38,113 bases of DNA from an uncultured Dictyoglomota bacterium. GTDB lineage: Bacteria; Dictyoglomota; Dictyoglomia; Dictyoglomales; Dictyoglomaceae. The stretch covers positions 1-38,113 of the forward strand of contig CAZZIO010000024.1 of assembly GCA_964654465.1 (NCBI GenBank). The letters run 5' to 3'. Position numbers and translations under genes: made by a program. Shown piece after piece: positions 8,274 through 32,941 of the stretch (within the stretch, counting starts at the first letter, position 1; the number at the start of each line of letters is the position of its first letter). Below the pieces are notes generated by a model. It saw nothing but the letters and a program-made list of their open reading frames with translations. It had not been told where the DNA came from and did not search any database.

Positions 8274-8274
8274 G

Positions 8275-9825
8275 ATGCCATTAGCATTATATAGAAAATA
8301 TAGGCCTCAAACCTTTGAAGAAGTTGTAGGCCAAGAACATATAGTAATAACATTACAAAACAGTCTTAAGTACAACCATATAGGTCATGCCTACCTCTTT
8401 GCAGGGCCAAGAGGTACAGGAAAGACCACTGTTGCAAGAATCTTAGCAAAATCCCTTAATTGTGCAGAAGGTCCGACACCAACCCCATGTTTAAAGTGTG
8501 CCTCTTGTATGGAAATTTCAGAAGGAAGAAGCATAGATGTAATTGAGATAGATGCTGCCTCTAATCGTGGAATAGATGAGATAAGGGATATCAGAGAGAA
8601 AGCAAGACTCTTACCTGTAAGGGATAGATATAAGGTATATATCATAGACGAAGTCCACATGTTAACAAATGAAGCCTTTAATGCCCTATTAAAGATATTG
8701 GAAGAGCCTCCAGATCACGTAGTATTTATCATGGCAACCACTGAGCCTCAAAAGATACCTTTAACTATTCTTTCCCGATGTCAAAGATTTGACTTTAGAA
8801 GATTAACAAGGGATGAGATAGTTAAACAATTGGCAAAAATTGCAGAGAAAGAAGGGGCTAAAATAACAGAAGGAGCATTAAAACTCATTGCCTTACAAGC
8901 TCAAGGCTCCTTAAGAGATTCCATTAGTCTTCTTGAACAGCTCTTGGTATATGGAGATCAAGAGATCAATGAAGAACTTGCAAGAAACCTTCTTGGTCTT
9001 CCCACCTATGAATTTACTTATACCTTTGCAAAGGCCCTTGGAGAATATAACTTAGCAGAAGGTTACAGTCTTCTTCAACAGATATTTCAGATGGGTAAAA
9101 ACCCACAACAATTTGCAAGGGATCTTTTACGGCATTTTAGAAATTTACTTCTTCTTAAGGCAGATCCAAGGGTTGGAAATATTCTCTCCCTTACTCAGGA
9201 AGAATATGACGAACTTATAGAGGAAACGAAACTATATACCATAAAAAGATTACAAGAAATAATTGATCAGCTTCTTATCTTAGAAAATAGACTTAGAGAC
9301 CTTACCAACGCCCCCTTAGTTATGGAAATGCTTCTAATTCCTCTCTTCATAAAACCAGAAGGTGGAGAAGTAATTTTAGAAGCACCATTAGAGAAAGAAG
9401 AAAAGAAGGTAGAAGTTAAAAAGCAAGAACCAGTAAAAGAAGAAAAGAAATCAGAAGAAAAAGGTATAGATATAGAGGTTGTCAAGGATAAATGGACAAC
9501 TGTATTAGAAAGAGTAAAGAAGAAAAAAGTATCCTTAGAAGCCATGCTTAGAGAGGCAAGAATTGTAGGAATTGATGAGGAAGGAAGATTAGTTCTTGGC
9601 CTTCCCAAGACATTATCATTCCTTAAAGAGAGATTAGAAGAAAGACCAAATAGAAGTGTAGTAGAAGAAAAAATAAGAGAGGTTTATGGGGTACAGATTC
9701 CTGTAAAATTTATTACCATGGAAGATGATCTAATTTTAGACAATCCCAAAATTTCCAGTAAGAAAGAGGAGAACCTTTCTACTGAGGAGATAAGAAACTT
9801 CTTTAAGGGAAAAACCTTAGAATAG
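8275..9825 (+). CDS. dnaX: DNA polymerase III subunit gamma/tau
   Basis: LYRKYRPQTF, GPRGTGKTT, EIDAASN, IIDEVHML, SRCQ. Confidence 0.97.
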   Translation: MPLALYRKYRPQTFEEVVGQEHIVITLQNSLKYNHIGHAYLFAGPRGTGKTTVARILAKSLNCAEGPTPTPCLKCASCMEISEGRSIDVIEIDAASNRGIDEIRDIREKARLLPVRDRYKVYIIDEVHMLTNEAFNALLKILEEPPDHVVFIMATTEPQKIPLTILSRCQRFDFRRLTRDEIVKQLAKIAEKEGAKITEGALKLIALQAQGSLRDSISLLEQLLVYGDQEINEELARNLLGLPTYEFTYTFAKALGEYNLAEGYSLLQQIFQMGKNPQQFARDLLRHFRNLLLLKADPRVGNILSLTQEEYDELIEETKLYTIKRLQEIIDQLLILENRLRDLTNAPLVMEMLLIPLFIKPEGGEVILEAPLEKEEKKVEVKKQEPVKEEKKSEEKGIDIEVVKDKWTTVLERVKKKKVSLEAMLREARIVGIDEEGRLVLGLPKTLSFLKERLEERPNRSVVEEKIREVYGVQIPVKFITMEDDLILDNPKISSKKEENLSTEEIRNFFKGKTLE

Positions 9826-9835
9826 GAGGGATAAA

Positions 9836-10153
9836 GTGAAAGGAAATCCATTTGAAGCCATGAAACAACTTAAGAAGATACAAGAAAAAATGGCCAAAAT
9901 TGATCAAGAACTTGAACAGACCTTAGTTGAAGGTACAGCAGGTGGTGGAGTAGTAAAAATAGTAATGACTGCGAAAGAGGAAGTAAAAGAAGTAAAAATA
10001 GATCCCGAAGTAGTTAATAAAGAGGAGGTAGATGTATTGGAGGATCTCATCTCAGCTGCCTTAAGAGATGCCCTTACAAAGGCAAAAGAAAAGGCAGCTG
10101 AAAAAATGGGAAGTCTCACTGATGGACTTCCTTTTCCTCCTGGACTTTTCTAA
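9836..10153 (+). CDS. ebfC: YbaB/EbfC nucleoid-associated protein
   Basis: GTAGGGVVKI...IDP...LEDLI motif; conserved position between dnaX and recR. Confidence 0.93.
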   Translation: MKGNPFEAMKQLKKIQEKMAKIDQELEQTLVEGTAGGGVVKIVMTAKEEVKEVKIDPEVVNKEEVDVLEDLISAALRDALTKAKEKAAEKMGSLTDGLPFPPGLF

Positions 10154-10156
10154 AAT

Positions 10157-10765
10157 ATGCATGAAAAAAGCTTATTTGAACAGCTCATTGATGAGCTAAA
10201 AAAGATACCTGGTATTGGGCCTAAGTCAGCTCAAAGGATAGCCTTTTACCTTATAAAACAACCCCAAGAGAATGTAGAGCATTTAGCAAACACCATCTTA
10301 AGGGTTAAAAAACAAACAAAATATTGTTCTATATGTTATAATCTCACCGAAAAGGATCCATGTGAAATATGCTCTAATCCAGATAGAGAGCAATCTATTA
10401 TCTGTGTAGTGGCAGATCCAAAAGACGTATGGGCTATAGAAAAGACATCACATTTTGAGGGAGTTTACCATGTCCTTGGAGGACTTATATCTCCCCTTGA
10501 TGGTGTATTTCCAGAAGATTTAAGAATAAATGAACTAATAGAAAAGGTTAAAAAGGGAAATATAGAGGAAGTAATACTAGCTACTGACTCTACCCCAGAA
10601 GGAGAAGCAACTGCCCTTTATATAGCTCGTCTTTTAATCCCTTATAAAATAAAAGTTACTCGTCTTGCCCATGGACTTCCTGCAGGAACAGAGCTTGATT
10701 TTGCTGATGAAATTACCTTAATCCATGCTATAGATGGAAGACAGGAACTGAAAATAAATTTTTAA
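10157..10765 (+). CDS. recR: Recombination mediator RecR
   Basis: PGIGPKSAQRIAF, C4 zinc finger, YHVLGG, Toprim EGEATALYI, TRLAHGLP. Confidence 0.97.
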   Translation: MHEKSLFEQLIDELKKIPGIGPKSAQRIAFYLIKQPQENVEHLANTILRVKKQTKYCSICYNLTEKDPCEICSNPDREQSIICVVADPKDVWAIEKTSHFEGVYHVLGGLISPLDGVFPEDLRINELIEKVKKGNIEEVILATDSTPEGEATALYIARLLIPYKIKVTRLAHGLPAGTELDFADEITLIHAIDGRQELKINF

Positions 10766-10782
10766 AAAAAGGAGGTTGAAGT

Positions 10783-11355
10783 ATGAAGGATATGTTAGAA
10801 GTTCGCTGGCATGCTAGAGCAGGGCAAGGAGCAAAGACCGCTTCCTATCTCCTTGCTGAAACAGCCATGGAGGCTGGAAAATTTATACAAGCCTTCCCTG
10901 AATATGGTCCAGAAAGAACCGGAGCACCTATGAAGGCCTATACAAGGATAAGTGATAAACCTATAAGAATACACAGCCAAGTATACAATCCAGACGTAGT
11001 GGTAGTTCTTGATAAAAGTCTAATAGGAAAAGTAAATGTATTAGAAGGGCTACCTTCTGATGGGATCATCATTGTAAATACCACTCAAGATCCTAAGGAG
11101 GTTAGAAAAGATCTTGGAATCTCAGATAGGAAAATCTATACCGTAGATGCTACTGGTATAGCTCTTCAAACTATTGGAAGGCCAATACCAAATACCCCAA
11201 TGCTTGGAGCCCTTATAAGAGTAGTTCCAATAATTTCCTTAGAAGATGTACTCGATCAATTGAAAAAGAAATTTGAAGGGAAATTTAAACCCGAGGTTAT
11301 CGAGGGTAACCTTCAAGCTATAAAAAGAGCTTACGAGGAGGTAAAAGGAGAATGA
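10783..11355 (+). CDS. porC: Pyruvate/2-oxoacid:ferredoxin oxidoreductase gamma subunit
   Basis: EVRWHARAGQGAKTA, AFPEYGPERTGAP, PNTPMLGA. Confidence 0.92.
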   Translation: MKDMLEVRWHARAGQGAKTASYLLAETAMEAGKFIQAFPEYGPERTGAPMKAYTRISDKPIRIHSQVYNPDVVVVLDKSLIGKVNVLEGLPSDGIIIVNTTQDPKEVRKDLGISDRKIYTVDATGIALQTIGRPIPNTPMLGALIRVVPIISLEDVLDQLKKKFEGKFKPEVIEGNLQAIKRAYEEVKGE

Positions 11356-11630
11356 AACTTCCAGGATGGAAAGAATTAGTTAATTCGGGTCCAATCCTTC
11401 CAGCATCTACATCTAAAGAGTATAAAACTGGAGATTGGAGAACCTTTAAACCAGAAATAGATTACAATAAATGTACTACATGTATGTTTTGCTGGCTCTT
11501 CTGCCCAGATTCTGCAGTAAAATTTGATGGGCAAAAAGTATACATTGATTATGATTATTGTAAAGGCTGTGGAGTCTGTGCAGCAGAATGCCCTGTAAAA
11601 GCCATAACCATGAAAGAAGAAGAAAAGTAA
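11352..11630 (+). CDS. porD: Pyruvate:ferredoxin oxidoreductase delta subunit (2x[4Fe-4S])
   Basis: KTGDWRTFKP, CxxCxxCxxxCP, YCKGCGVCAAECP. Confidence 0.93.
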   Translation: MKLPGWKELVNSGPILPASTSKEYKTGDWRTFKPEIDYNKCTTCMFCWLFCPDSAVKFDGQKVYIDYDYCKGCGVCAAECPVKAITMKEEEK

Positions 11631-11643
11631 AGGAGGGAAGAAG

Positions 11644-12831
11644 ATGAAAACCCAAGTTAGAAAAATTGCTATAGAGGGAAATGAGGCAGCAGCATTAGCT
11701 TTCAAACAAATAAATCCTGACGTAGTAGCTGCTTATCCTATAACTCCATCTACTGAGGTGGTACAAAAATTTTCTGAATATGTGGCAAACGGAGAAGTAG
11801 ATACCGAATTTGTACCTGTGGAAAGCGAACACAGTGCTATGAGTGCCTGTGTCGGAGCATCTGCTGCTGGAGCAAGAGTTATGACATCTACAGCATCTCA
11901 GGGTTTAGCCCTCATGTGGGAGATGCTTTATATAGCGGCATCCTTAAGGCTACCTATCATAATGACAGTTGCAAACAGAGCTTTATCTGCTCCTATTAAC
12001 ATTCATGGAGATCACAGCGATGCTATGGGAGCAAGAGATTCCGGATGGATACAAATCTTCTCTGAAAATGTACAAGAAATATATGATAATATATTCCAAG
12101 CAGTAAAGATTGCAGAAAATGAAAATGTAAGATTACCTGTAATGGTAGGATATGATGGTTTTATCACAAGTCATTCTGTAGAAACCATTGAGCTTCTTGA
12201 TGATGAGGTGGTTAGAAATTTTGTTGGAAAATATAAACCAAAATATACTCTACTTGACGTGGATAATCCTATCTCTGTTGGACCCCTTGCCCTTACCGAC
12301 TCCTACTTTGAGTTTAAAGTAGCCCAAGCACATGCTATTGAAAATTCTCTCCCCATTATCAAAAAGGTAGGAAAGGAATATGGAGATCTTACAGGAAGAT
12401 ACTATGATGTGATTGAAAAATATAAGATGGATGGAGCTGAATATGTTATAGTAGCTATGAGTTCTACAGTAGGTACAGCAAGAGAAGTGGTAGATAGCCT
12501 TAGAGAAAAAGGGCTTCCTGTAGGACTCCTTAAAATAAGAGTTTTTAGGCCATTCCCCACCGAGGACATTGTCAATGCATTAAAGGATGTAAAAGTAGTA
12601 GGAATCCTTGATAGAAGCATGGTACCAGGATCCTTTGGAGGACCTCTCTATCATGAGATCACATCTGCCATGTATCATTTCGATAAGAGACCAATAGCCC
12701 AAGCCTATGTATATGGTCTTGGTGGAAGAGACATCACCACAAACCATATAGAAAAGGTATTTGAAGAACTTATGGAGATAGGTAAGAAGGGTAAGCCAAA
12801 TCCTCTTACCTACATCGGAGTAAGAGAATAG
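11644..12831 (+). CDS. porA: Pyruvate:ferredoxin oxidoreductase alpha subunit
   Basis: AAYPITPST, VESEHSAMS, TASQGL, NRALSAPINIHGDHSD. Confidence 0.93.
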   Translation: MKTQVRKIAIEGNEAAALAFKQINPDVVAAYPITPSTEVVQKFSEYVANGEVDTEFVPVESEHSAMSACVGASAAGARVMTSTASQGLALMWEMLYIAASLRLPIIMTVANRALSAPINIHGDHSDAMGARDSGWIQIFSENVQEIYDNIFQAVKIAENENVRLPVMVGYDGFITSHSVETIELLDDEVVRNFVGKYKPKYTLLDVDNPISVGPLALTDSYFEFKVAQAHAIENSLPIIKKVGKEYGDLTGRYYDVIEKYKMDGAEYVIVAMSSTVGTAREVVDSLREKGLPVGLLKIRVFRPFPTEDIVNALKDVKVVGILDRSMVPGSFGGPLYHEITSAMYHFDKRPIAQAYVYGLGGRDITTNHIEKVFEELMEIGKKGKPNPLTYIGVRE

Positions 12832-12843
12832 GAGGTGCTAAAA

Positions 12844-13779
12844 ATGGCAATAAATCTCAGAGAATTAGCATTAAAAGAAGAGAGATTAGTAAGTGGACAT
12901 AGATTATGTGCAGGTTGTGGTGCCAGCATTATTGTAAGAATGATATTAAATGCCATAGACGAACCAGTGGTAGTAGCAAACGCTACAGGATGTCTTGAAG
13001 TAGCAACCACCATATTCCCTTTCACAGCATGGAATGTACCATGGATTCATAGCGCCTTTGAAAATGCAGCTGCTACCATATCAGGAGTTGAGGCAGCTTA
13101 TAGAGCTTTAAAGAAAAAGGGAGAAATAAATAGAGAGATAAGATTTTTAAGCTTCTCAGGTGATGGTGGTACCTATGATATTGGTCTCCAAGCCCTTTCT
13201 GGCGCCATTGAAAGAGGCCACAGGGCTGTATATATATGCTACAACAATGAAGCTTACATGAATACAGGTATACAAAGATCTGGTGCAACCCCAAGAGGAG
13301 CCTTTACCACAACCTCTCCAGCTGGAAGAGTTATTCCTGGTAAACCTCAAAAGAGAAAAAATCTTACTGAAATGATGGTAGCTAATGGTGCAAGATATGT
13401 GGCACAAGCATCCCCAAGCCACTGGAGAGATCTGATGGAAAAAGTAAGAAAGGCTGTAAATACAGATGGTCCTGCCTTCTTAAACATATACTCCACATGT
13501 CCCAGAGGATGGAGAACACCAGATAATTCTGCTATAAGCATATCAAGACTTGCAGTAGAAACTGGAGCTTGGTTCCTTTATGAAGTAGAAGATGGAAAAT
13601 ACAAAATAAATTACAAACCCGCAAAAGGATTTAAACCCATTGAAGAATATATCAAGGTACAAGGAAGATTTGCCCATCTCTTAAAGCCAGAAAACGCCCA
13701 CATATTAGAAGATCTTAAAAAGGATTTAGAAGAAGAATGGAATAGACTCCTCAGACTTGAGGAAGTTACAAATAAATAG
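12844..13779 (+). CDS. porB: Pyruvate:ferredoxin oxidoreductase beta subunit (TPP-binding)
   Basis: GHRLCAGCG, ATGCLEV, GDGGTYDIG, NEAYMNTG, CPRGW. ATG 12844 chosen from GGAGG spacing; the ORF track starts at 12835. Confidence 0.93.
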   Translation: MAINLRELALKEERLVSGHRLCAGCGASIIVRMILNAIDEPVVVANATGCLEVATTIFPFTAWNVPWIHSAFENAAATISGVEAAYRALKKKGEINREIRFLSFSGDGGTYDIGLQALSGAIERGHRAVYICYNNEAYMNTGIQRSGATPRGAFTTTSPAGRVIPGKPQKRKNLTEMMVANGARYVAQASPSHWRDLMEKVRKAVNTDGPAFLNIYSTCPRGWRTPDNSAISISRLAVETGAWFLYEVEDGKYKINYKPAKGFKPIEEYIKVQGRFAHLLKPENAHILEDLKKDLEEEWNRLLRLEEVTNK

Positions 13780-13781
13780 TC

Positions 13782-14651
13782 ATGGATAAGAATAGGCACC
13801 TCTCCTATAGGAGAGGTGCCATCCCCATAAAAAAGAATATAGATTATAAACTGGGAGTACATCTATTCCGAGGCGATAGAGCTATTTTGGAAGATATAAA
13901 ACTATTAAAGATAAATACCGCTCAAATATTTTCTGGAAATCCAAGGAGCTACAGACCTAATAACGAAAAACTTCCCACCTTTCCTTTTTCAAGCATATTC
14001 ATCCATGCACCCTACGTGGTTAACATTGCATCCTCCGATGAAAAAGTATGGAATCTATCTATAAAAAAGGTAAAAGAAGAATTAAAAATTGCCGAAGAAA
14101 TGGAATGGGAAGGAGTAGTTATACATGCAGGAAGCAGTAAAAAAATGGGAAAAGACGTAGCTAAAAAAAATTTCTTAAAAGCCTTAGAAAAAATCTTTGA
14201 AACTGACGGAGTTAAAAGGGCAAAACTTATTATGGAAAATAGTGCAGGAGAAGGAGACGGATGGGGGTCTACAATAGAAGATTTAATCTCTGTATATGAA
14301 GAATTTCCTGATATCTATTTCTGTCTTGATACATGTCATCTTTTTGCAGCTGGATATAATCTCAAAAATGAGAGAGTATGTAGAGAAACCTTTTATAATT
14401 TCTTTGAAAAGATACCTCAAGAAAAATTAGTTTTAATCCATATAAATGATTCCCATTTTCCCCTTGGATCAAAAAGGGACCAGCATGCCCATGTAGGAAA
14501 AGGTGCCATGGGAGTTACAGCCTTCCAAAATCTATTAAAAATTGAAACCATAAGAAGAATTCCTTTAATACTTGAAACTCCTAAGGACTCTCCCATGGCA
14601 GACCTCTATAATTTACATATAATAAGAAAAATACTTGAAAATTCCGACTAA
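13782..14651 (+). CDS. nfo: Endonuclease IV (AP endonuclease family 2); start uncertain
   Basis: [43 protein letters not shown] metal-ligand motifs. Confidence 0.9.
13795..13820. repeat. Perfect 26-bp palindrome GGCACCTCTCCTATAGGAGAGGTGCC just after porB
   Basis: 13-bp arms are exact reverse complements; no U-tract follows on the + strand. Confidence 0.85.
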
Positions 14652-15634
14652 CCTATCAAATATTTCTTCACAAATTTCATCTTCTCATAAGTATGGAAGG
14701 TACCTCCACCTTCATGTCCATTAAAAGGATAAATCTTAATATCCTTTTCTCCTTTGTAATGATTATAGGCTGCAAAAACAGTAGATGGTGGACATATCAT
14801 ATCCATAAGACCTACAGAAAAGAGGGCTTTAGCCTTTGCCCTTGCTGAAAAATTCACCCCATCAAAATAGGAAAGAGTTTTAAATACTTGATCTTCATGA
14901 TCTCTATGAGTCTTCAAATATTGCACTATCTCTTGATATGGATATCCATCGGTAATCTCTACAGCCCTTCTATAATGGCATAAGAAAGGAACATCAGGCA
15001 TAGCAATCTTTAGATCTATACCAATATAGGTAGAAAGTCCAGCAACAGCAAGAGTTATACCTCCTCCTTGACTTCCCCCTGTAATACCAACCCTATTTTT
15101 ATCTACCTGAGGAAAGGATAGTAAAGTTTCTACTGCCCTTACCGCATCTGTAAAAACCCTTCTATAATAATATTTCTTCGGGTCCAAAATACCTCTTGTC
15201 ATAAATCCAGGATATTCTGGATAAAAAGGTGCATCATCATAATCAGGAGTATCTCCAGGACTCCATGAACTCCCCTGTCCTCTTGTATCCATTACTAAGT
15301 GGACAACTCCCATATTAGCCCACAAAAGAAAATCATAAGCAAAACTCCTTCCACCGCCATATCCAATATATTCCACAATCCCAGGAAATTTATCCTTTCT
15401 GTCCTTTGGAACAATAAGCCATGCCTTTATCCTCTGCCCCTTATAACCAGAAAAAGTAACATCATAGGTCTCCACCAATTCAAGTCCAAAATCTACCTTC
15501 TCAAAAACAGGATCCAAAGGATATTTTCTTGATTCTTCAAGGGTCTCTTTCCAAAAATCATCAAAATCTTCCGGCTCTTCCCTTTCAGGTAAATATTTCC
15601 AAAGCTCTGAAAGTGGCAGGTCAAAAAGTGCCAT
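14648..15634 (-). CDS. CE7 acetyl xylan esterase / cephalosporin-C deacetylase
   Basis: DTRGQG, GGSQGGG nucleophile motif, [17 protein letters not shown]. Confidence 0.93.
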
Positions 15635-15821
15635 AAAACACCTCCTCTTTAAATTTTTGAAAATAATTATACTACAATTGTATAAGAAAGATGATGATAG
15701 AGCTTTTAATACATATAATCTAAATCCTATCTACAAAGAATCTTTCCTTTACTTTTTCTTATGTGTTATAATTATTACAATAAGTTTTAAAATAATTAAG
15801 TAGATTAAGGAGGAAAGTAAA

Positions 15822-16946
15822 ATGGCAGATATTAGATCATATGAGATAGTAGAAGGATTATACCTTATTAAAAATCCACAACTTTTCTTCAATTTTAATA
15901 GCTATCTTTTATCATGTCCCTTGGATCAAAACATTAAGCTAAACATCCTTTTTGACCCCCTTCCTTTAAGATGTTTTAAAGATTTTGTAAAAGCTATTGA
16001 TGATCTTATAGGAATAGAAAATATTGATATTATTTATACAAACCATCAAGATCCAGATCTTACCTCTTCTGTTCCTGCTCTTCTTGACCTCTCCAAAAAA
16101 GCCTTCTATCTTACTTCTCAGGATACATGGAGACTTACAAGTGGATATAATATTGATCCAGATAGGTTCCAACCCATTGAAATACTTCCCAATAGAAAAT
16201 TAAAGTTTAGCAAAGATAGTGATGATTGTCTTCAATTTATTCCTACTCCTTTTTGTCACTTTAGAGGTGCTTATGCAGTATATTATCCTAAACTTAAGGT
16301 CCTTTTTACAGGAGACCTCCTTGGAGGGGCATCTACAAAAAAATCTGAAGGAATATATGCTGATAAAGATTCATGGGTTGGTATTAAGCTTTTCCATGAA
16401 GTTTACATGCCCACAAAGGAAGCCTTAAGACTTGCTATAGATCAAATTGGAAGATTGGCTCCTATTCCCGAACTTATTCTCCCTCAACATGGAGATATCA
16501 TAAAGGGAGATTTAGTTATAGAGTTTTTAAAGAGATTAAACGAGATTGATGTTGGATTGGATTATATAAAGAAAGAGGAAAGAGAAAAAGAACTTTATAT
16601 AAGAGTCTTTAATGATATGCTGGACTACGCAAAGAGTAAATATGGAGAAAAGGCAGTGATAGAGAAATTGAATAATATAAGCATTCAAATGTCCAACTAT
16701 CCTGAGATTATTAAAATAGAAAATGGAGTAATCTCTGAGGTTTATATACCTCCAGCCACTGCTTTTGTACTTATATATGATTTATTCTGCCAGCATCTCT
16801 CTGAAAAAGACAAAGAAGATATAAGACTTCAATCTATTGCAACATTCAAAAAATATAACTTATCGGTACCAGAAGAATTGCTTTACAAAAGAAGCAGTTC
16901 TTTGGTAGACAAATTAAGAATAATCTTTAATCCTATAAGAATATAA
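15822..16946 (+). CDS. MBL-fold protein of the oxygen-binding di-iron (ODP)-like type with a helical C-terminal extension
   Basis: NSYL, FDP, NHQDPD, PFCHFRGA, LFTGDL, FHEVYMP, PQHG; SD AAGGAGG; TGnTATAAT at 15764-15772. Confidence 0.75.
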   Translation: MADIRSYEIVEGLYLIKNPQLFFNFNSYLLSCPLDQNIKLNILFDPLPLRCFKDFVKAIDDLIGIENIDIIYTNHQDPDLTSSVPALLDLSKKAFYLTSQDTWRLTSGYNIDPDRFQPIEILPNRKLKFSKDSDDCLQFIPTPFCHFRGAYAVYYPKLKVLFTGDLLGGASTKKSEGIYADKDSWVGIKLFHEVYMPTKEALRLAIDQIGRLAPIPELILPQHGDIIKGDLVIEFLKRLNEIDVGLDYIKKEEREKELYIRVFNDMLDYAKSKYGEKAVIEKLNNISIQMSNYPEIIKIENGVISEVYIPPATAFVLIYDLFCQHLSEKDKEDIRLQSIATFKKYNLSVPEELLYKRSSSLVDKLRIIFNPIRI

Positions 16947-16951
16947 TAATC

Positions 16952-16984
16952 AAAAGCCCTCCAATTTTGTTTGGAAGCTTTTTT
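16952..16984. terminator. Probable bidirectional terminator between convergent genes
   Basis: AAAAGCccTCCAA-ttttgt-TTGGAaGCTTTT, flanked by A and T runs. Confidence 0.55.
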
Positions 16985-17684
16985 ATACTTTTTGTAAAAA
17001 GGCACTCATATCTTCAAAAGTACCAATAATATATAGAATATCTCCTCTATAAATTTTTTCCGATGGACTAATATTACTTATAACATTACCTCCCCTTTGA
17101 ATAGCCAAAATTGACAAATTATATTTTCGCCTCAATTCCAATTCCTCTATTGTTTTTCCTATAATTGATTCTGGTGGCTCTATCTCAAAAATTTTAACGT
17201 TTGCTGAAAACTCCATATAATCAATAACATTTGGAGCTACTAATCTTTGAGCAAGTCTCACTCCCATATCCCTCTCTGGATATACAATAAAATTCACACC
17301 AATTTTCTCAAGAATCTTTTCATGTGGCTCACTTATAGCCCTTGCAATTACAAATTGCACACCAAGTTCTTTAACCAAAAGAGCTGTAAGTACACTTGAT
17401 TCCACATCATGAGCTATAGCAACTATGGCCACATCTACATTTTGTACTCCAGCCTCTCTTAAAGCATTTATGTTCGTTGAGTCTAAAACTCTTACAAAAG
17501 ACACATAATCTTTGACTTCCTCAACCTTACTTTCATCTTTATCAATAGCTATTACAGAATATCCCATTCTTTCAAGGGTTAAAGCCACCGATACTCCAAA
17601 CCTTCCTAAACCTATCACTGCAAAACTCGTGAGCTTTGTCTTATCAAGACCTGCCTTTTTTAGACTATAAGCTAAAGATTTCAT
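16983..17684 (-). CDS. ktrA: Ktr/Trk potassium uptake RCK subunit
   Basis: FAVIGLGRFG, VYPERDMGVRLA, RCK_C domain. Confidence 0.9.
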   Translation of the reverse strand: MKSLAYSLKKAGLDKTKLTSFAVIGLGRFGVSVALTLERMGYSVIAIDKDESKVEEVKDYVSFVRVLDSTNINALREAGVQNVDVAIVAIAHDVESSVLTALLVKELGVQFVIARAISEPHEKILEKIGVNFIVYPERDMGVRLAQRLVAPNVIDYMEFSANVKIFEIEPPESIIGKTIEELELRRKYNLSILAIQRGGNVISNISPSEKIYRGDILYIIGTFEDMSAFLQKV

Positions 17685-17687
17685 AAA

Positions 17688-19046
17688 TTAACCTATACTC
17701 ACCTCCTCAGTTGGGTACTCAACATGAGATCTCTTTGATACAGGCACCAAAATTGCCATACCTGCAGTAACAGTACCAACTCTTCCTAAAAACATGATAA
17801 AAATAATAACCAATTTAGCAAAAGGAGAAAGATAAGGAGTTATTCCTGTAGAAAGCCCCACAGTACCAAAAGCAGATACTACTTCAAATAGAATGGAAAG
17901 AGGAGGAAATGGCTCTGTTATAAGAAGAATAAACCATCCTAAAATTACAAGAGTGATGGACAATAAAAATACAGTATAAGCCCTTTTCACATTATCCCAA
18001 GTGATAGTTCTATCTTTAAAGTGAAGATTTTTCCTTTCTAAAATTACTGCTACTACACTCAACCAAAGAACTAAAAAAGTTACTGTCTTTATACCACCAC
18101 CTGTTCCACCTGGAGATGCACCAATAAACATAAGAACCATCAAAAAAAGAAGAGTAGAAGGGTTTAATTTTCCAATATCCAAAGTACTAAAACCAGCTGT
18201 TCTTGGAGTAACAGACTGAAAAAAGGACGCTAAAAACTTTGACCATAGATTTAAAGGTTTCAATGTCTTTGGATTATTATATTCAAGCATAAAGATAAAA
18301 ATAGTACCTATAATAATTAAAAATACTGTTGTAACAATTGCCATCTTACTATGCAGAGAAAGATGTAGCTTCCTTTTAGTAAATTTTTGGATAAAATCAT
18401 AAATGACAATAAAGCCTATACCTCCAATTACAATAAGAGATGTTATTGTAAAAACTAAATGAGAATTAGAAACATATCCTGTAAAACTTTTAAAACCCCC
18501 TAAAAGGTCAAAGCCTGCATTACAAAAAGCAGAAACTGAATGAAATATGGCAAATTTTAAGCTCTTTAAGAAAGAATAATCTTTAATAAAGACAAAAAAC
18601 AAAGAAATAGCCCCCAATAACTCAAATATAAATACTATAATAAGTACACTTTTTAAAAAAGAAACAATTCCTCTAAGAGACGTAGTATTTAACGAATACT
18701 GCAAAAACAATCTTTCTTTAAGTTGTATCTTTCTATTTAAAAGAAGCATCATGCCTGTTGCAATTACAGCATAACTTAACCCACCTATTTGAATTAAGAG
18801 AAGAATCACTAAGTGGCCAAAATGGGACCAATAAGTACCTGTATCAACAACTACAAGTCCTGTTACACAAGTAGCAGATGTTGCTGTGAATAAGGCAGTA
18901 AGAAAATCAGTAAACTTACCTTCTGCAGAAGAGAAAGGTAACATTAAAAGTAACGTACCTGCAAGAATTACTGCTCCAAAACTTAAAATCAAAAATAAAG
19001 CAGGATTTAACCCTCTTTTTTTAGAAACAATTTCACCATCAATCAT
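17688..19046 (-). CDS. ktrB: Ktr/TrkH potassium uptake membrane subunit
   Basis: Four pore motifs: SATCVTGL, SAFCNAGF, TPRTAGF, SAFGTVGLS; GASPGGTGGGIKT. Confidence 0.93.
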   Translation of the reverse strand: MIDGEIVSKKRGLNPALFLILSFGAVILAGTLLLMLPFSSAEGKFTDFLTALFTATSATCVTGLVVVDTGTYWSHFGHLVILLLIQIGGLSYAVIATGMMLLLNRKIQLKERLFLQYSLNTTSLRGIVSFLKSVLIIVFIFELLGAISLFFVFIKDYSFLKSLKFAIFHSVSAFCNAGFDLLGGFKSFTGYVSNSHLVFTITSLIVIGGIGFIVIYDFIQKFTKRKLHLSLHSKMAIVTTVFLIIIGTIFIFMLEYNNPKTLKPLNLWSKFLASFFQSVTPRTAGFSTLDIGKLNPSTLLFLMVLMFIGASPGGTGGGIKTVTFLVLWLSVVAVILERKNLHFKDRTITWDNVKRAYTVFLLSITLVILGWFILLITEPFPPLSILFEVVSAFGTVGLSTGITPYLSPFAKLVIIFIMFLGRVGTVTAGMAILVPVSKRSHVEYPTEEVSIG

Positions 19047-19104
19047 AAAAGCTAAGAAAAAAATACACCTCTTTTCAAATAAATCTTTTTCTTAACATCT
19101 AAGT

Positions 19105-19133
19105 ATTCTATATCTAAAGCATTTATGAGTCAA
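19105..19133 (-). promoter_or_regulatory. Sigma70 promoter of ktrBA
   Basis: Minus strand TTGACT (19133-19128), 17 nt spacer, TAGAAT (19110-19105). Confidence 0.7.
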
Positions 19134-19201
19134 ATTTATAAAATTAATTAGAAGCCATAATATAGATATCATATAAGGTTATTAATTTAACACATTTTTA
19201 A

Positions 19202-19230
19202 TTGAAACTTAAGAACATAATATTTATAAT
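19202..19230 (+). promoter_or_regulatory. Sigma70 promoter of purC
   Basis: TTGAAA (19202-19207), 17 nt spacer, TATAAT (19225-19230). Confidence 0.7.
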
Positions 19231-19268
19231 TAAACAAAATAAAACTCTTAAAAGAGGTTTTGAGATTT

Positions 19269-20288
19269 ATGGGCAGTGTAAAGGATTTAATAATTTTGGA
19301 GAATCCATCCGAAAATTCCCTTGGTAGAGGTAGATTCATCTTTTCTGACAGATATTCTGTATTTGATTATGGAGAAATGCCAGACCTCATAGAAGATAAG
19401 GGTAAAGCTATATGTATAGTCACATCTTTCTTCTTTGAAAAATTAGAAAATCTGGGAATTAAAACCCATTATATAGGAGTAGTAGAAGAGGATAAAGTAA
19501 AATCCCTTTCTGAGCTAAAAAATACATCTAACATTCTTGAATTTAAAATGGTAAGAGTAGTGAAACCTGAATTAAAAGATAATATTTATGACTATTCTAT
19601 TTTCCAAAGCCTTAAAAATAATTTTCTCATTCCTTTAGAGGTCATATATAGAAACTCCCTTCCAGAAGGTTCTTCTGTATTTAGAAGATTAAAGGATGGA
19701 AGTTTAAAAATGGAAGATCTTGGACTTAACAAGATACCAAGACCAGGAGAAAAACTTGAAAAACCAATAGTAGACTTTTCCACAAAATTAGAGGTAAATG
19801 ATAGATATCTATCAAAAGAAGAAGCTCAAAAAATAAGTGGCCTCACTATGGAAGAATTTGAAAAACTTATAAATATTACCCTTTTTATAGATGACCTTAT
19901 AACTCATGAGGCAGAAAAAATAAGTTTAATAAACGAGGATGGAAAATTTGAATATGCTTTTGATGCAGAGAGAAATTTCATGGTAGTAGATGCCTTAGGA
20001 ACTCTCGACGAATGCAGATTTACCTATAATGGAATACCTATAAGTAAGGAAATAGCAAGAATATATTACAGAAAAACTGAATGGTATAAGGAAATAGAAG
20101 AAGCAAAAAAGAAAGACAGATTTAATTGGAAAAATATGGTAGGATCCCCACCAAATCTTCCAAAAGAACTTAAAGACCTTATATCCTCTATATACAAAGC
20201 TTATGCTAACGAAATAACCCAAAGAGAATGGTTTGATGCTCCTCCTATGAAAGATCTTTTAAATCGACTCCAAGAGCTTCTTCAATAG
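19269..20288 (+). CDS. purC: SAICAR synthetase, long (~340 aa) form
   Basis: GSVKD, FSDRYSVFD, IPLEVIYRN, FSTKLE..D, DGKFEYA, VDALGTLDECRF, SKE. ATG 19269 preferred over TTG 19260 from AGAGG spacing. Confidence 0.9.
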   Translation: MGSVKDLIILENPSENSLGRGRFIFSDRYSVFDYGEMPDLIEDKGKAICIVTSFFFEKLENLGIKTHYIGVVEEDKVKSLSELKNTSNILEFKMVRVVKPELKDNIYDYSIFQSLKNNFLIPLEVIYRNSLPEGSSVFRRLKDGSLKMEDLGLNKIPRPGEKLEKPIVDFSTKLEVNDRYLSKEEAQKISGLTMEEFEKLINITLFIDDLITHEAEKISLINEDGKFEYAFDAERNFMVVDALGTLDECRFTYNGIPISKEIARIYYRKTEWYKEIEEAKKKDRFNWKNMVGSPPNLPKELKDLISSIYKAYANEITQREWFDAPPMKDLLNRLQELLQ

Positions 20289-20371
20289 ATCTTTAATAAA
20301 CAATTTTAAATGTTTGTAAACTTTATAACATACCCATTTTTTAAAGAGATCCATCTTTTATTGTCCTAACT

Positions 20372-20630
20372 TTATCCACAACTGTGGATAACTTTGTGGA
20401 TAGGTTGTGGATAACTCTGTGGATAACTTTATAAATCTGTGGATAACTTTGTGGATAGAATATTAATTGTTGATTATGTGGAAAACTTTGGAAAACTTAT
20501 CCACAGCCAAAAAACATACATTTCTTAACTCCTTATAACTTATCCACAATATCCACACCCCTAACTACTACAACAAGGTTTTTTATTTTATAAAACACCC
20601 TTTGTATTTGTTACAGTAGGCTGTGGATAA
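20372..20630. other. DnaA-box cluster with unwinding element; probable oriC
   Basis: Perfect TTATCCACA at 20372, 20497, 20540; perfect TGTGGATAA at 20383, 20406, 20418, 20438, 20622; one-mismatch boxes at 20395, 20450, 20477, 20549; trio-like TAACTACTACAACAA at 20562-20576 followed by an AT-rich tract; intergenic. Confidence 0.85.
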
Positions 20631-20644
20631 AATCACGATGATGT

Positions 20645-20676
20645 AAAAAAGCCCCCCTATTTAGGGGGCTTTCTTT
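20645..20676. terminator. Intrinsic terminator; U6 tail on the minus strand, probably bidirectional
   Basis: AAAGCCCCC (20648-20656), 7-nt loop, GGGGGCTTT (20664-20672); A6 on the left, TTTCTTT on the right. Confidence 0.8.
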
Positions 20677-20711
20677 GAGAAAGGAAATTCTGACTGGGCT
20701 TTGTTTCTTTC
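20645..20711 (-). ncRNA. Candidate ~67-nt small RNA of unknown family
   Basis: Bounded by a near-consensus promoter (20746-20718) and a terminator; no AUG in the predicted transcript. Confidence 0.5.
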
Positions 20712-20717
20712 GAAAAA

Positions 20718-20746
20718 ATTATAACTTATTTTTTGAATTTATGCAA
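20718..20746 (-). promoter_or_regulatory. Sigma70 promoter pointing toward the DnaA-box cluster
   Basis: Minus strand TTGCAT (20746-20741), 17 nt spacer, TATAAT (20723-20718). Confidence 0.65.
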
Positions 20747-20868
20747 TAATATAAAAAAATTTTAATACTACTATAAGTAACACGAGTTATTTTAATAGAT
20801 CATATAAAAGAATAAAATTTTCATATCTATAAAAAAGTTTCAGAGAAAAACGATTTATTTTAAAAGTA

Positions 20869-20877
20869 TGATATAAT
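20869..20877 (+). promoter_or_regulatory. Extended -10 promoter element of the MgtC-family gene
   Basis: TGaTATAAT, separated from the ATG by 7 nt; no SD. Confidence 0.55.
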
Positions 20878-20884
20878 TTTTAAT

Positions 20885-21529
20885 ATGATCCAGGAATTTG
20901 AGATTATAAAAAGACTTATTTTTTCTTTAATACTATCTGGCATAATAGGATGGGAAAGGGAAAAGGAAGAGAAACCAGCTGGATTTAGAACACATATACT
21001 GGTTTCTCTGGGAGCTACTCTTTTTATGATTGTTTCAGCTTATGCTTTTCCAAATACTGATCCAACTCGTATAGCTGCTCAGGTGGTTACTGGTATAGGT
21101 TTTATAGGTGCAGGTACTATTTTAAGAAATGAACATTCTGTAAAAGGTTTAACAACAGCAGCAAGTATATGGGCTGTCTCAGGTATAGGTATGGCTGTTG
21201 GTGCAGGACTTTATTTTCCTGCTTTTTTTACTACTTTGTTTATATTAGCTGTTCTCATATTAGCAACAAAACTTGAGAAAGTATTTATAGGTTCCCATAG
21301 AGATTTAATATTAAAATGTAAAATAGAAGATAAGCCAGGGGTTATAGGAGAAATTGGAACTATTCTTGGGGAACTTAAGGTTAATATAAAACAAATAGGT
21401 TTAAACTCTATAAATGAAAATATAGCAGAATTAAATTTAATTTTGAGATTGCCATCTAAGATTAAAATGGAAGAGATTGTAGAAAAGCTTTCAAAATTAT
21501 CCTCAGTAAAAGAAATAGATATCATTTAG
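20885..21529 (+). CDS. MgtC/SapB family membrane protein with C-terminal ACT domain
   Basis: IGWERE..KPAGFRTH, DPTRIAAQVVTGIGFIGAG, GLTTAASIW; ACT-like DKPGVIGEIGTILG. Confidence 0.92.
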   Translation: MIQEFEIIKRLIFSLILSGIIGWEREKEEKPAGFRTHILVSLGATLFMIVSAYAFPNTDPTRIAAQVVTGIGFIGAGTILRNEHSVKGLTTAASIWAVSGIGMAVGAGLYFPAFFTTLFILAVLILATKLEKVFIGSHRDLILKCKIEDKPGVIGEIGTILGELKVNIKQIGLNSINENIAELNLILRLPSKIKMEEIVEKLSKLSSVKEIDII

Positions 21530-28672: not shown

Positions 28673-28939
28673 ATGAAAGTAAAAGAGTTAATATTGAAGA
28701 ATAAATCAGGTTTGCATGCTCGTCCCGCAGCTGTTTTTGTTCAGACAGCAAGCAAATTTAAGAGTAAAATAATAATAAAAGCTAATAACAAAGAAGCAGA
28801 TGCAAAAAGTATATTAAAAGTACTTTCTTTAGGGGCTAATCAGGGGACAAAACTTATATTAGAAGTTGAGGGGGAGGACGAGGAAGAAGCTCTTAAAACC
28901 CTTTCAGAGCTTATAGAGTTGGGTTTAGGGGAGGATTAA
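28673..28939 (+). CDS. ptsH: PTS phosphocarrier HPr
   Basis: GLHARPAA (His15), ADAKSIL (Ser46). Confidence 0.95.
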   Translation: MKVKELILKNKSGLHARPAAVFVQTASKFKSKIIIKANNKEADAKSILKVLSLGANQGTKLILEVEGEDEEEALKTLSELIELGLGED

Positions 28940-30690
28940 TGGGTAAACGGGATAGAAAAGAGAAAATTTTAAATGTTATTTTAGAGGCTTCTCATCCTAT
29001 AAAGATAGAAGATATAGCGGAGAAGACAGGCTATAGTTTATCTACTGTTAGAAGGGAATTAAGAAGTCTTGAAGAGTTTTTGTTTGCCCATGGAATTGAA
29101 GTTAAGCATATCCCATATAAAGGTGTTCATATTACAAATCTTGAAAAGGACTCACATCTTTATATTATGTCTTTATTATCCCAAAATGAACAGATAACTA
29201 ACAAAGAAAGGCATAAATTGATGATTCTTGACCTGCTATTATCAACAGAAAAAATAACATTAGAAAATTGGGAAGAAAAATTCAATATGAGCCATCCTAC
29301 AATTGTAAAAGATTTTCAATTAGTAAAGAAATGGATGATTAATCACAAACTAAATATAATAGCTAAGCCTCATTATGGAATTAGATTGATAGGTGAAGAG
29401 AAGTATATTAGACAGGCAATCTTGGATTTAATCTTGGAGAGTTTATCGGAAGAAGAAAAAGGTAAGTTGTTAAATGAGGTACTTTTAAATTATAGAGTAA
29501 ATTTACCTTGGATTGATATTTTTAATGACTCCTTTTTTGGAATTATTAAGTTTTTAAATGAAATAGAGAATGTATGGGATGTAAAATTTACTGATGATAG
29601 TTTTCTTCATTTATTGTTAATCATTGGGATTTCTATAAGTAGATTGAAAAAAGGATATAGATTGGAGGACTTTTATACGAATTATTATGATTTAAATCCT
29701 CCTTTTGATATTTTAGAAAGTTTTTATGATTTAAATTTAGATGATAGGGAAAAAAGATTTATAAACCTATACTTACTTTCTTCTGAATTAGAATCTGGTA
29801 AGAGTTTTCTTAAAGAAGATAAGGATTTAAGAAGTATTTTAGAAAAGGAGATCTTTAATTCTTATTCTTTTAAGAGTAATATCTTTAAAGTTTTTTTGAG
29901 TCATATACAGACTGCTATCTTCAAGATAAAGAATAATATAAACATATATAACAATATGTTAGAAAAAATAAAGAAAAACTATCCAATTATATACTATATT
30001 TCATGCGAATTATCAAAAACTCTTGAAAAAAGATTTGATATAAAGATTCCAGAAGAAGAAAAAGGATATATAACATTATATTTGTTAAGACTGTTCGAAA
30101 AAATGGCTAAGAAGAAAAAGATTATTGTAATATGTCCTTCTGGAGTATTAACAGCGAATCTTTTAGCAGAGAAAATAAAAAAAATATTTGAAGATGTTGA
30201 AGTTGTAAAGATAACATCAATAAGAGACTTACCTCGAAATCCCTCTAAAGGATTTATATATGTTAGTACTATTCCACTTTCTAATTTTGGATCACCCTAT
30301 TTTCAAATTTCACCATTATTCTCTAAGGATGAAGAGGAAAAGTTCAAAAATTACATTTATAACTTTTATAAAGAAAATGTTTATGTAGAGATTATGGAAG
30401 TAAAAGATGAAAATGAGATTTTACAATACATACCTAAGGACTCTACTATTATTGCCATAAAGGAGAAACTATATTGGATCTACTCTAAGGAAGAACCAAA
30501 AGAAGAAAAGTTTATTTTGTTCTGTAACCCCAACAATAAATCCTATTATATGTATATCCATCTTTTTGATTATTTTAAGACTATATGGTTATCTCAAAAG
30601 ATAGCTACAAGTATATCTCTGAGAAATTTAAATAGGATCAGTGAGGATTATTTACTCAAATTGCTATATTCCTTGGAAAGGGGAATTTAA
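28939..30690 (+). CDS. PRD-domain (MtlR/ManR/LicR-type) transcription regulator
   Basis: Two N-terminal HTH/Mga-like segments, two PRD-like segments, EIIB-like IIVICPSG. Confidence 0.82.
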   Translation: MGKRDRKEKILNVILEASHPIKIEDIAEKTGYSLSTVRRELRSLEEFLFAHGIEVKHIPYKGVHITNLEKDSHLYIMSLLSQNEQITNKERHKLMILDLLLSTEKITLENWEEKFNMSHPTIVKDFQLVKKWMINHKLNIIAKPHYGIRLIGEEKYIRQAILDLILESLSEEEKGKLLNEVLLNYRVNLPWIDIFNDSFFGIIKFLNEIENVWDVKFTDDSFLHLLLIIGISISRLKKGYRLEDFYTNYYDLNPPFDILESFYDLNLDDREKRFINLYLLSSELESGKSFLKEDKDLRSILEKEIFNSYSFKSNIFKVFLSHIQTAIFKIKNNINIYNNMLEKIKKNYPIIYYISCELSKTLEKRFDIKIPEEEKGYITLYLLRLFEKMAKKKKIIVICPSGVLTANLLAEKIKKIFEDVEVVKITSIRDLPRNPSKGFIYVSTIPLSNFGSPYFQISPLFSKDEEEKFKNYIYNFYKENVYVEIMEVKDENEILQYIPKDSTIIAIKEKLYWIYSKEEPKEEKFILFCNPNNKSYYMYIHLFDYFKTIWLSQKIATSISLRNLNRISEDYLLKLLYSLERGI

Positions 30691-30691
30691 T

Positions 30692-32362
30692 ATGAAGATA
30701 ATAAAGGGTATTTCTGGATCTCCTGGAGTTACTATAGGTAAGGTTTTTCTTTGGATTAAGAAAGAAAAAGATCTAAATTATAAAGGAGATGAGGCAAAAA
30801 AGATTTGGAGAGAAGCAAAGGAAGCTCTTAAAGAGGAATTAAATAATAGATTATTGGATTTGTCTGAGACAGAAAGAGATCTTGTAAACTTTTATTTATT
30901 ACTTTTAGATGATCCTACTTTTGAAGAATTTCTCTTTGAAAAAATAGATGAAGGTTTAGATTTTAAAACTGCAGTTGAAATAACCACTGAAAGGTTTAAA
31001 AAAGAATTTTTAAATTTAGATGTTTATTTTAAAATGAGGGCCCAAGATATAGAAGCTCTTAAGGAAGAAATATTTAGGGTAGTTGTTGGAGAGAGCTATC
31101 CAAGCTTAGAAGAACCTTCCATATTGGTATCAAAAGAAGTAACACCTTGGCAATTAATTAATATTCCAAAAGATAAATTATTGGGTATTGTTAGTGAGAA
31201 AGGAGGAGTGCTTTCACACCTTTCCATAATAGCAAGGAATTTAAATTTGCCCCTTTTAATAGGTGCTAATGTTTTAGAGATTAAGGGGGGAGAACTGGCT
31301 ATTTTAGATGGTGAAAAGGGAATTTTGATATTAGATCCTTCTTCTCAGGAAGTTGAAAAGTATCAGAGATTATACGAACGTTATAAGATACTTCAAAAGA
31401 AAGCAATAGAGTTCAAAAACTACGTACCTAAGAAAGAGAATGGAGAAAAATTCTTTATCTCAGGAAATATTGGTAATTTGGAAGATGCCTTTTTAGCTTT
31501 AGAGCAAGGAGCAATGGGAATAGGCCTTTTTAGAACTGAATTTTTATTCTTGGAGAGGAATGATCCCCCATCTGAAGAAGAACAGTACGAAATTTATAAA
31601 AAAGTTGGAGATCTATTTTTAAATTATCCTGTTATTATAAGGACCTTAGACATTGGTGGAGATAAAAATGTACCCTATATACAGTTTGAGAGAGAAGAAA
31701 ATCCATTTTTGGGGCTTAGAGGAATTAGGTGGTCATTATATGAAAAAGTACTTTTTAAAACTCAATTAAAGGCGATTTTGAGGGCAAGCATTGGAAATAA
31801 TATTCATATGATGTTTCCTATGGTAGATTTGGTAGAGGAGGTAATAGAGGCAAAAAAACTTGTGAAAGAAGCAGTAGAGGAGCTGGAAAAGGAAGGTAAA
31901 GAATATAAAATTCCCCCTATTGGTATAATGTTGGAGACACCTATATCTATTTTAAACATAAATAGATTTGCAGATTTTGTAGACTTTTTTAGTTTAGGTA
32001 CAAATGATCTTTTTCAATATACTTTTGCTGTAGATAGAACTAACGAAAAAGTCTCCTATTTGTATAGGCCATATCATCCTGCTTTTTGGGATTTAATTAA
32101 GGAAGCAATAGATTCTGCTCATAAAATTGGTAAGTGGATTGGTATTTGTGGAGAATTAGGTGGGGATTTAAGGGCCTTCTTACTTTTATATTCTCTTGGT
32201 ATTGATGAGGTGAGTGTAGCCCCATTGAGGATTCCAATTTTAAAGTTATTGAGTTCTAAAATAGCCAAGGTTGATGTTTCTTTTGATTCATTACAAGAAG
32301 ATGAACTTTTAGAAGTATTAGATAAGCATTATCAAAAAATCATGGAAGAAATAGGAAGTTAA
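30692..32362 (+). CDS. ptsI: PTS enzyme I
   Basis: GGVLSHLSIIAR (phospho-His), GIGLFRTEF, RTLDIGGDK, NPFLGLRGIR, GTNDL, GICGE. ATG 30692 follows GAAAGGGG. Confidence 0.95.
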   Translation: MKIIKGISGSPGVTIGKVFLWIKKEKDLNYKGDEAKKIWREAKEALKEELNNRLLDLSETERDLVNFYLLLLDDPTFEEFLFEKIDEGLDFKTAVEITTERFKKEFLNLDVYFKMRAQDIEALKEEIFRVVVGESYPSLEEPSILVSKEVTPWQLINIPKDKLLGIVSEKGGVLSHLSIIARNLNLPLLIGANVLEIKGGELAILDGEKGILILDPSSQEVEKYQRLYERYKILQKKAIEFKNYVPKKENGEKFFISGNIGNLEDAFLALEQGAMGIGLFRTEFLFLERNDPPSEEEQYEIYKKVGDLFLNYPVIIRTLDIGGDKNVPYIQFEREENPFLGLRGIRWSLYEKVLFKTQLKAILRASIGNNIHMMFPMVDLVEEVIEAKKLVKEAVEELEKEGKEYKIPPIGIMLETPISILNINRFADFVDFFSLGTNDLFQYTFAVDRTNEKVSYLYRPYHPAFWDLIKEAIDSAHKIGKWIGICGELGGDLRAFLLLYSLGIDEVSVAPLRIPILKLLSSKIAKVDVSFDSLQEDELLEVLDKHYQKIMEEIGS

Positions 32363-32462
32363 TAGTTAATTTTTGAAAGAATTTTAATTCTTTAATATTA
32401 TTTTAACTTTCTTGAATAAAGTTGATGTATCTTTGATAATATTCAAAAACGAGGTGGTGAAA

Positions 32463-32927
32463 ATGTTAAATTTCTTAGAGGCTATAGGAAATAGAATAGA
32501 GATTTTAGATAGGGTTGATACATGGGAAGAGGCGGTAAGAATAGGTGGGAAACTTTTAGAGAAGGATGGTATTGTGGAACCTAATTATATAGATAAAATG
32601 ATTGAGGTATGTAAAGAATTGGGGCCTTATGTGGTTATTGCTCCAAGAGTAGCAATCCCCCATGCTCGTCCCGAAGATGGGGCAAAATCCTTTGGGGTTT
32701 CTTTATTAGTAATAAGGAATGGAATAAATTTTGGATCTTATAATGATCCTGTTTATCTTGTAATTTCTTTTGCAACTCCTGATAAAGAATCTCATCTTGA
32801 ATTTTTACAAGAGTTGGCAGAAATTCTTCAAGATTCGGAAAAATTAGCAGAACAGTTTATAAGTTTTAAAGATAAAGAGGAAATTAAAGATTACATTAAA
32901 AAGTTCTTTTCTAAAGTTAATACATAA
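32463..32927 (+). CDS. PTS EIIA component (UlaC-like, EIIA type 2)
   Basis: WEEAV...LGPYVVIAPRVAIPHARPEDG; start chosen from the GAGGTG SD. Confidence 0.9.
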   Translation: MLNFLEAIGNRIEILDRVDTWEEAVRIGGKLLEKDGIVEPNYIDKMIEVCKELGPYVVIAPRVAIPHARPEDGAKSFGVSLLVIRNGINFGSYNDPVYLVISFATPDKESHLEFLQELAEILQDSEKLAEQFISFKDKEEIKDYIKKFFSKVNT

Positions 32928-32941
32928 AAGGGGTGTTACAA

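Follow-up and report, generated by a model that had tools for sequence, protein, structure and literature searches.

A predicted chromosomal replication origin between purC and an mgtC-family gene in an uncultured Dictyoglomaceae bacterium

Background

The closest described counterpart of the locus analyzed here is the predicted origin of Dictyoglomus turgidum DSM 6724 (NC_011661), listed in DoriC as ORI92730237, with a module at 277,077-277,108 as tabulated in supplementary data to Pelliciari et al. 2021 (PMC8287927). The module is printed there as AATAGGTGT / TACAGGTGT / CAGG / GATGATGAT; in this complement notation, a perfect DnaA box adjoins a second box directly, and a 4-nt spacer separates the pair from three GAT trios (PMC8287927). 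The same source gives the rule for a basal unwinding system as a box, a spacer of at most 16 bp, and at least three consecutive NAN DnaA-trios starting 0-16 nt after the box (PMC8287927). Locus tags in the accessible text of the D. turgidum genome paper assign DnaA to Dtur_0001, RecR to Dtur_0259, pyruvate oxidoreductase to Dtur_0260-0262, endonuclease IV to Dtur_0264 and a CE7 acetyl xylan esterase to Dtur_0265 (PMC5167688). The genome has 1813 protein genes in 1,855,560 bases, from which the position of a tag near Dtur_0269 can be calculated as roughly 270-275 kb, in agreement with the 277 kb of the module.

In the same text, the orthologue of Dtur_0276 is Dicth_0008 and the two genomes are highly syntenic (PMC5167688), so the locus tags of D. 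thermophilum appear to begin at the origin locus. The D. thermophilum origin was set from the co-localization of dnaA, dnaN, recF and gyrA together with GC skew, as far as the available announcement states (PMC3931368), and we infer that the same site has been taken as the origin in both reference Dictyoglomus genomes. The text of the D. turgidum genome paper makes no mention of Trk, MgtC, potassium, purine, Dtur_0271 or Dtur_0272 (PMC5167688), and a full-text literature search found no study of any Dictyoglomus origin.

Better-known systems provide further points of comparison. The Bacillus subtilis oriC module, in the published descriptions available, has a same-orientation tandem box pair (boxes 6/7), a 4-nt G+C spacer and CTA/TTA-type repeats with nine trios running into A+T-rich DNA, and it flanks dnaA. 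Many bacteria, E. coli among them, have their oriC in a gene context other than the dnaA cluster (PMC4285127). The E. coli origin sits in the gidA-mioC context and has few strong and many weak boxes. Clusters of DnaA boxes away from dnaA are also found at the E. coli datA and DARS loci, which are not known to be sites of strand-composition switching.

Results

A dense DnaA-box cluster in the purC-mgtC gap

We analyzed a stretch of 38,113 bases (hereafter the window) for matches to the DnaA-box consensus TTATCCACA with at most one mismatch. The original prediction had counted 12 boxes, eight perfect and four with one mismatch, and an exact recount returned the same numbers in 259 bp of intergenic DNA at 20372-20630. 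Perfect boxes start at 20372 (+), 20383 (-), 20406 (-), 20418 (-), 20438 (-), 20497 (+), 20540 (+) and 20622 (-), and those with one mismatch at 20395 (-), 20450 (-), 20477 (-) and 20549 (+); two additional boxes with two mismatches lie inside the cluster at 20468 and 20487. All eight perfect matches of the window fall within the cluster. Window-wide there are 32 matches, against 12.45 +/- 3.71 expected from 100 dinucleotide-preserving shuffles (largest 23, none reaching 32). With the cluster set aside, 20 one-mismatch boxes remain in the other 37.9 kb, a background of 0.53 per kb with no more than two per 259 bp, and the Poisson probability of at least 12 boxes in 259 bp at this density is 8e-20. 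As expected of an oriC, 20372-20630 therefore carries a DnaA-box cluster well above background. The features of the gap and its flanking genes, in which GC3 skew denotes G versus C at third codon positions per gene, are as follows.

19260-20288, + strand: purC (SAICAR synthase), left flank; TIGR00081 at 214.2 bits (cut-off 189.9); last gene with negative + strand GC3 skew (-0.158)
20289-20371, no strand: AT-rich spacer from the purC stop codon to the first box; 30-mers of 73-87% A+T; second, less favored candidate for the unwinding site
20372-20380, + strand: box 1, perfect, inverted relative to the array after it; degraded in the relative L001 (6/9 identical)
20383-20458, - strand: head-to-tail array of six boxes at 20383, 20395 (1 mismatch), 20406, 20418, 20438 and 20450 (1 mismatch); proposed DnaA-oligomerization region
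20468-20495, - strand: three degenerate boxes, candidate low-affinity sites, at 20468 (2 mismatches), 20477 (1 mismatch) and 20487 (2 mismatches)
20497-20505, + strand: perfect box where orientation switches to +; 9/9 identical in L001
20540-20557, + strand: abutting tandem box pair (perfect, then 1 mismatch); counterpart of the D. turgidum DoriC pair and of B. subtilis boxes 6/7
20558-20576, + strand: four-base C run (spacer), then a trio-like stretch in which agreement with the DnaA-trio pattern is limited to two consecutive CTA units (20565-20570)
20577-20621, no strand: A+T-rich stretch between convergent boxes, proposed DNA-unwinding element; the 30-mer 20580-20609 has 83% A+T and -31.1 kcal/mol, against a window mean of -34.8
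20622-20630, - strand: box 12, perfect, on the far side of the proposed unwinding element and oriented towards the tandem pair; 9/9 identical in L001
20650-20670, no strand: G+C-rich hairpin with T-runs on both strands, a bidirectional terminator-like site; hairpin kept in L001 with different stem letters
20674-20698, no strand: 25-nt block, 24/25 identical in L001, where the surrounding DNA is about 60% identical
20885-21529, + strand: MgtC/SapB-family gene, right flank; matches NF007431 (E 4.2e-47) but falls short of the equivalog cut-off; + strand GC3 skew turns positive with this gene (+0.543)

The start-to-start spacings of the six-box array are 12, 11, 12, 20 and 12 nt, approximately one helical turn, which would fit a DnaA oligomer assembled on one face of the helix.

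Gene neighborhood

Neither dnaA nor dnaN adjoins the cluster. Among 33 ORFs of at least 80 aa, profile-scanned over 20 kb to its left and 17.5 kb to its right, none encodes DnaA, DnaN, RecF, GyrB or GidA/MnmG, and nine small ORFs in the intergenic gaps are, by eye and with no model scan, unlike ribosomal protein L34; the absence of the former genes had been claimed beforehand and is borne out within this span, and that of rpmH, claimed with it, appears to hold. Further away, dnaX, ybaB and recR are present at 8275-10765; metG, dnaX, ybaB and recR are 10-14 kb from the cluster, and recR, porCDAB, nfo and an AXE1-family esterase follow in order at 10157-15634, four genes before it. The PurC of the window is 90% identical to one metagenome protein, 80% to Dictyoglomaceae MAG proteins and 75% to a Dictyoglomus protein, and G+C content across the window is about 27-39%. 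A plasmid origin was considered and rejected as unlikely, and the main chromosome favored, given the housekeeping neighbors and a plasmid search that returned one record only, an 87-base A+T-rich match to a Buchnera plasmid.

Two other features of the window deserve mention in their own right. A 797-aa ORF at 3928-6321 (+) has no Pfam or NCBIfam match, a G+C content of 28% and a sense-strand GC3 skew of -0.469, the most negative among + strand genes. A full phosphotransferase set, comprising HPr, a BglG/PRD-type regulator, enzyme I and ascorbate-type IIA/IIB/IIC, occupies 28673-34520, immediately to the right of the origin region; at this place D. turgidum reportedly has a GH5 cellulase and a GH26 mannanase (Dtur_0276/0277).

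Strand composition switches at the cluster

The plain GC-skew profile of the window follows gene orientation and was therefore replaced by per-gene GC3 skew expressed on the + strand. Of the 18 genes left of the cluster, 16 have a negative value by this measure, against only 2 of the 15 to its right, and the pattern is true for both gene orientations. Pooled values are -0.257 on the left (G 592, C 1002) and +0.254 on the right (G 770, C 458). In a binomial model with gene orientation as a covariate and a single change-point, the purC/mgtC gap is the best of 29 boundaries, with a dlogL of 98.3 for automatic ORFs and 102.4 for curated genes, and the value is still 51.6 when only +/-10 kb are considered. 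Control maxima from 28 purC loci of other phyla (15-21 kb) range from 0.3 to 17.6, and none of 500 gene-order permutations matches the observed dlogL (largest 53.8).

The + strand passes from C-rich to G-rich at this boundary. Leading strands are as a general rule G-rich, so that this polarity is of the origin type and would not fit a terminus. A skew minimum lying elsewhere had been named as the observation that would count against an origin here; within the window, the orientation-corrected switch falls exactly in the purC/mgtC gap, and the cluster coincides, locally and within 38 kb, with a leading/lagging composition switch. A local switch of this extent could be mimicked by a rearrangement breakpoint and is not proof of a genome-wide skew minimum.

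Gene orientation points the other way. Thirteen of the 18 genes left of the site lie on the + strand (296-20288), including metG, dnaX, ybaB, recR, porCDAB and nfo, and would be transcribed head-on to a leftward fork, which counts against an origin at this place. Such a head-on bias is unusual beside an origin; it is conserved in L001 and, by the order of the published locus tags, in D. turgidum.

Conservation in relatives

Relatives were sought with a PurC-alignment scan of genome contigs, from which the best 80 of 599 stretches were compared. Three Dictyoglomota loci (L001-L003) are among these best 80 matches, and neither complete Dictyoglomus genome is. The first, L001, is from a Dictyoglomaceae MAG with a PurC 80% identical to that of the window, and contains dnaX-ybaB-recR-por-nfo-axe, purE-purC, 11 boxes in 300 bp and mgtC, in which the MgtC-family orthologue has a Pfam MgtC match of 139.7 bits. 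When the two gaps are aligned, 98 of 108 box positions are identical versus 89 of 151 positions between boxes (Fisher p 8e-9). L001 keeps eight of the 12 boxes without change, and five of the six in the array at 20383-20458 are 9/9 identical. The best change-point of the 17 boundaries in L001 is also the purC/mgtC gap, with a statistic of 8.6 that lies within the control range (6 of 28 controls are higher).

The other two Dictyoglomota loci, L002 and L003 (PurC 73-74% identical), have the order thiD-purE-purC-DOMON with at most two boxes per 300 bp, and the box cluster is absent within 10 kb of purC in both. The 77 loci from outside Dictyoglomota among the best 80 of 599 have at most three boxes in 300 bp, so that L001 alone among these 80 exceeds three (0 of the remaining 79 do). 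The synteny of purC, boxes and mgtC, proposed with the original prediction as a check, is thus kept in L001 and absent from L002 and L003; boxes are conserved in one relative, and the cluster is present in one of the three Dictyoglomota loci among the matches listed. Since the cluster is lacking near purC in L002 and L003, linkage to purC is not phylum-wide. The context at 9500-12400 in these two loci implies that either purC or the origin moved within the phylum. Gene content right of mgtC differs among the window, L001 and, from its published locus tags, D. turgidum.

Comparison with described origin modules

The D. turgidum predicted origin resembles the window site in three respects: 1) the module of two abutting boxes (the first perfect), 4-nt spacer and trios, with the window counterpart at 20540-20570; 2) the series RecR, pyruvate oxidoreductase, endonuclease IV and CE7 esterase (Dtur_0259-0265), which is collinear with the left side of the window; and 3) a position far from dnaA (Dtur_0001 versus about 277 kb). 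It differs in having three trio units against two in the window, and a PurC identity of 75% indicates that the window belongs to another lineage. On gene order, coordinates and the 31-nt module, as far as these are given in the published excerpts, the window site corresponds to the D. turgidum DoriC origin as its predicted orthologue.

The tandem pair, the 4-nt spacer and the CTA-type repeats leading into A+T-rich DNA are likewise shared with the B. subtilis module as described. The B. subtilis origin differs in flanking dnaA and in having nine trios against two consecutive units in the window, and of the two only the window has an inverted box that closes the far side. Compared with E. coli oriC, the flanking genes are different (purC and mgtC in the window), and many boxes match the consensus where E. 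coli has few strong ones. The datA and DARS loci share with the window a DnaA-box cluster away from dnaA, whereas the window cluster sits at a strand-composition switch.

A candidate unwinding site

A box with at most two mismatches, preferably in a tandem pair, is the first element of the basal unwinding rule, and it is present at 20540-20557 (0 and 1 mismatches). In place of three or more trios, the window has two units (CTACTA) at a spacer of 7 or 16, and L001 has seven at a spacer of 4 or 13. The trio rule is itself loose, as 6 of the 20 scattered boxes outside the cluster also pass it. In helix stability, the proposed unwinding element falls only about 1.3 sd below the mean of the window, and the lowest values are reached at 20740-20890, beyond the hairpin; the profile singled out no unwinding site within the gap. 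We place the putative unwinding site at 20558-20621 by positional homology with L001, D. turgidum and B. subtilis. In L001, 11347-11436 contains converging trio runs on opposite strands, with seven units after the tandem boxes and five after the far-side inverted box, and the corresponding numbers in the window are two and two.

A hairpin and a conserved block right of the boxes

The hairpin and the 25-nt block have their counterpart at 11463-11511 of L001. Within the window, the 15 nt at the core of the block occur once, and one of 80 loci (best 80 of 599) contains them. Scanned against Rfam, 19900-21100 returned nothing with an E-value under 0.08 or a score close to gathering level. A structured RNA beyond the hairpin found no support, as the minus-strand fold with L001 amounts to -3 kcal/mol and 0 of 17 pairs have a compensatory change. 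One possible role for hairpin and block together is to form the 3' end of a small minus-strand RNA terminating immediately before DnaA box 12; another is to insulate mgtC from the origin. No terminator was found between purC and the boxes, the hairpin at 20650-20670 being the sole terminator-like site, and purC transcripts may therefore run through the origin. A promoter scan (2 sites versus 4.7 expected) was not informative.

Discussion

The cluster at 20372-20630 is very probably the oriC of this uncultured Dictyoglomaceae member, a predicted DnaA-dependent origin of its single chromosome that lies in the purC-mgtC gap and not beside dnaA. The original prediction had described it as the real oriC in an unusual gene context. 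The local skew switch and the match to the D. turgidum DoriC entry support the first part of this description; the context itself is not a new discovery, as the site is new for this genome and the origin of the family is already in DoriC, judging from the published excerpt. The expectation that annotation anchored on dnaA would miss the site holds for purely dnaA-anchored methods, whereas predictors that use skew and boxes had already placed the origin of the sister genus there.

What the analysis shows is the box cluster, its conservation and the composition switch at exactly this gap; where the DNA would open, in which order DnaA would bind and how the origin would fire are inferred by analogy with model organisms. 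The perfect boxes would be occupied by DnaA encoded at another locus, and the six head-to-tail boxes at 20383-20458, with the weaker sites up to 20495, would nucleate a DnaA oligomer. The opposite-facing boxes at 20497 and 20540-20557 would then direct ATP-DnaA onto the trio-like, A+T-rich DNA of 20558-20621, with the inverted perfect box at 20622 closing its far side. Opening of 20558-20621 would allow helicases to be loaded and bidirectional replication to begin.

A more elaborate arrangement is conceivable, if rather unlikely: a symmetric, two-sided unwinding module in which inward-facing boxes flank an A+T-rich core of about 65 bp and a separate trio run, on one strand or the other, belongs to each side, and which would have been kept about 277 kb from dnaA since before the genera split. 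If this were true, two helicases could load from two DnaA filaments, and the lineage of the window would fire below the three-unit trio minimum of B. subtilis, perhaps since growth at about 70 C eases opening.

Among other explanations, a titrating or recycling locus of the datA/DARS type, or a cluster that buffers DnaA, with the true origin elsewhere (e.g. beside dnaA), is the one that survives best, and we regard it as very improbable. It would account for dense high-affinity boxes with no dnaA, dnaN or gidA nearby and for a trio run in the window that is below threshold. It gives no reason for a composition switch exactly at the gap, the homologous D. turgidum site was chosen by DoriC, which weighs skew and boxes, and L001 has a full seven-unit trio run beside its tandem boxes. 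A datA/DARS-type locus would be expected to lie away from the replication start and to have no unwinding module; here the switch is at the site, and the module is present in L001 and in the printed D. turgidum sequence.

Still less probable is that an inversion or recombination breakpoint, or a terminus, makes the skew switch, with the boxes a coincidental DnaA-controlled region of purC or mgtC. The 13 of 18 left-hand genes that would be head-on, the divergent gene content right of mgtC in the window, L001 and the published D. turgidum locus tags, and the lack of a terminator between purC and the boxes all fit this explanation. The C-rich to G-rich polarity is of the origin type, the left flank is collinear with D. 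turgidum, by its published tags, right up to the site, and, of 29 intergenic gaps, the boundary falls in the one that contains the boxes. Twelve boxes also far exceed the numbers at known DnaA-regulated promoters, which counts against a regulatory region. A chance breakpoint is made unlikely by the collinearity, the one-in-29 coincidence and the number of boxes taken together.

Least probable is a pair of origins, or a split origin of which this site is one half, the other box module being kept beside dnaA some 15% of the chromosome away. Examples of bipartite and dual origins are known from other bacteria (PMC3479198; bioRxiv 10.1101/2025.08.05.668638, in the parts available), and the D. thermophilum announcement counts the co-localization of dnaA, dnaN, recF and gyrA as one origin criterion (PMC3931368). 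Against this, the accessible supplementary table has one D. turgidum row (PMC8287927), and a single clean switch of large effect suggests that the site fires in most cycles.

With the cluster read as the predicted oriC, the analysis indicates that, within 38 kb, orientation-corrected GC3 skew can narrow the position of an origin down to a single intergenic gap. It also connects the DoriC entry at 277 kb, the position of dnaA at Dtur_0001 and the apparent start of the D. thermophilum numbering at this locus, which no paper found in our literature search has linked. For the biology of the group, the site adds one more deep-branching thermophile with an origin that is not beside dnaA, as expected from E. 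coli and others, and leaves the understanding of origins unchanged; for the uncultured Dictyoglomaceae genome, it provides a well-supported origin call from one fragment alone.
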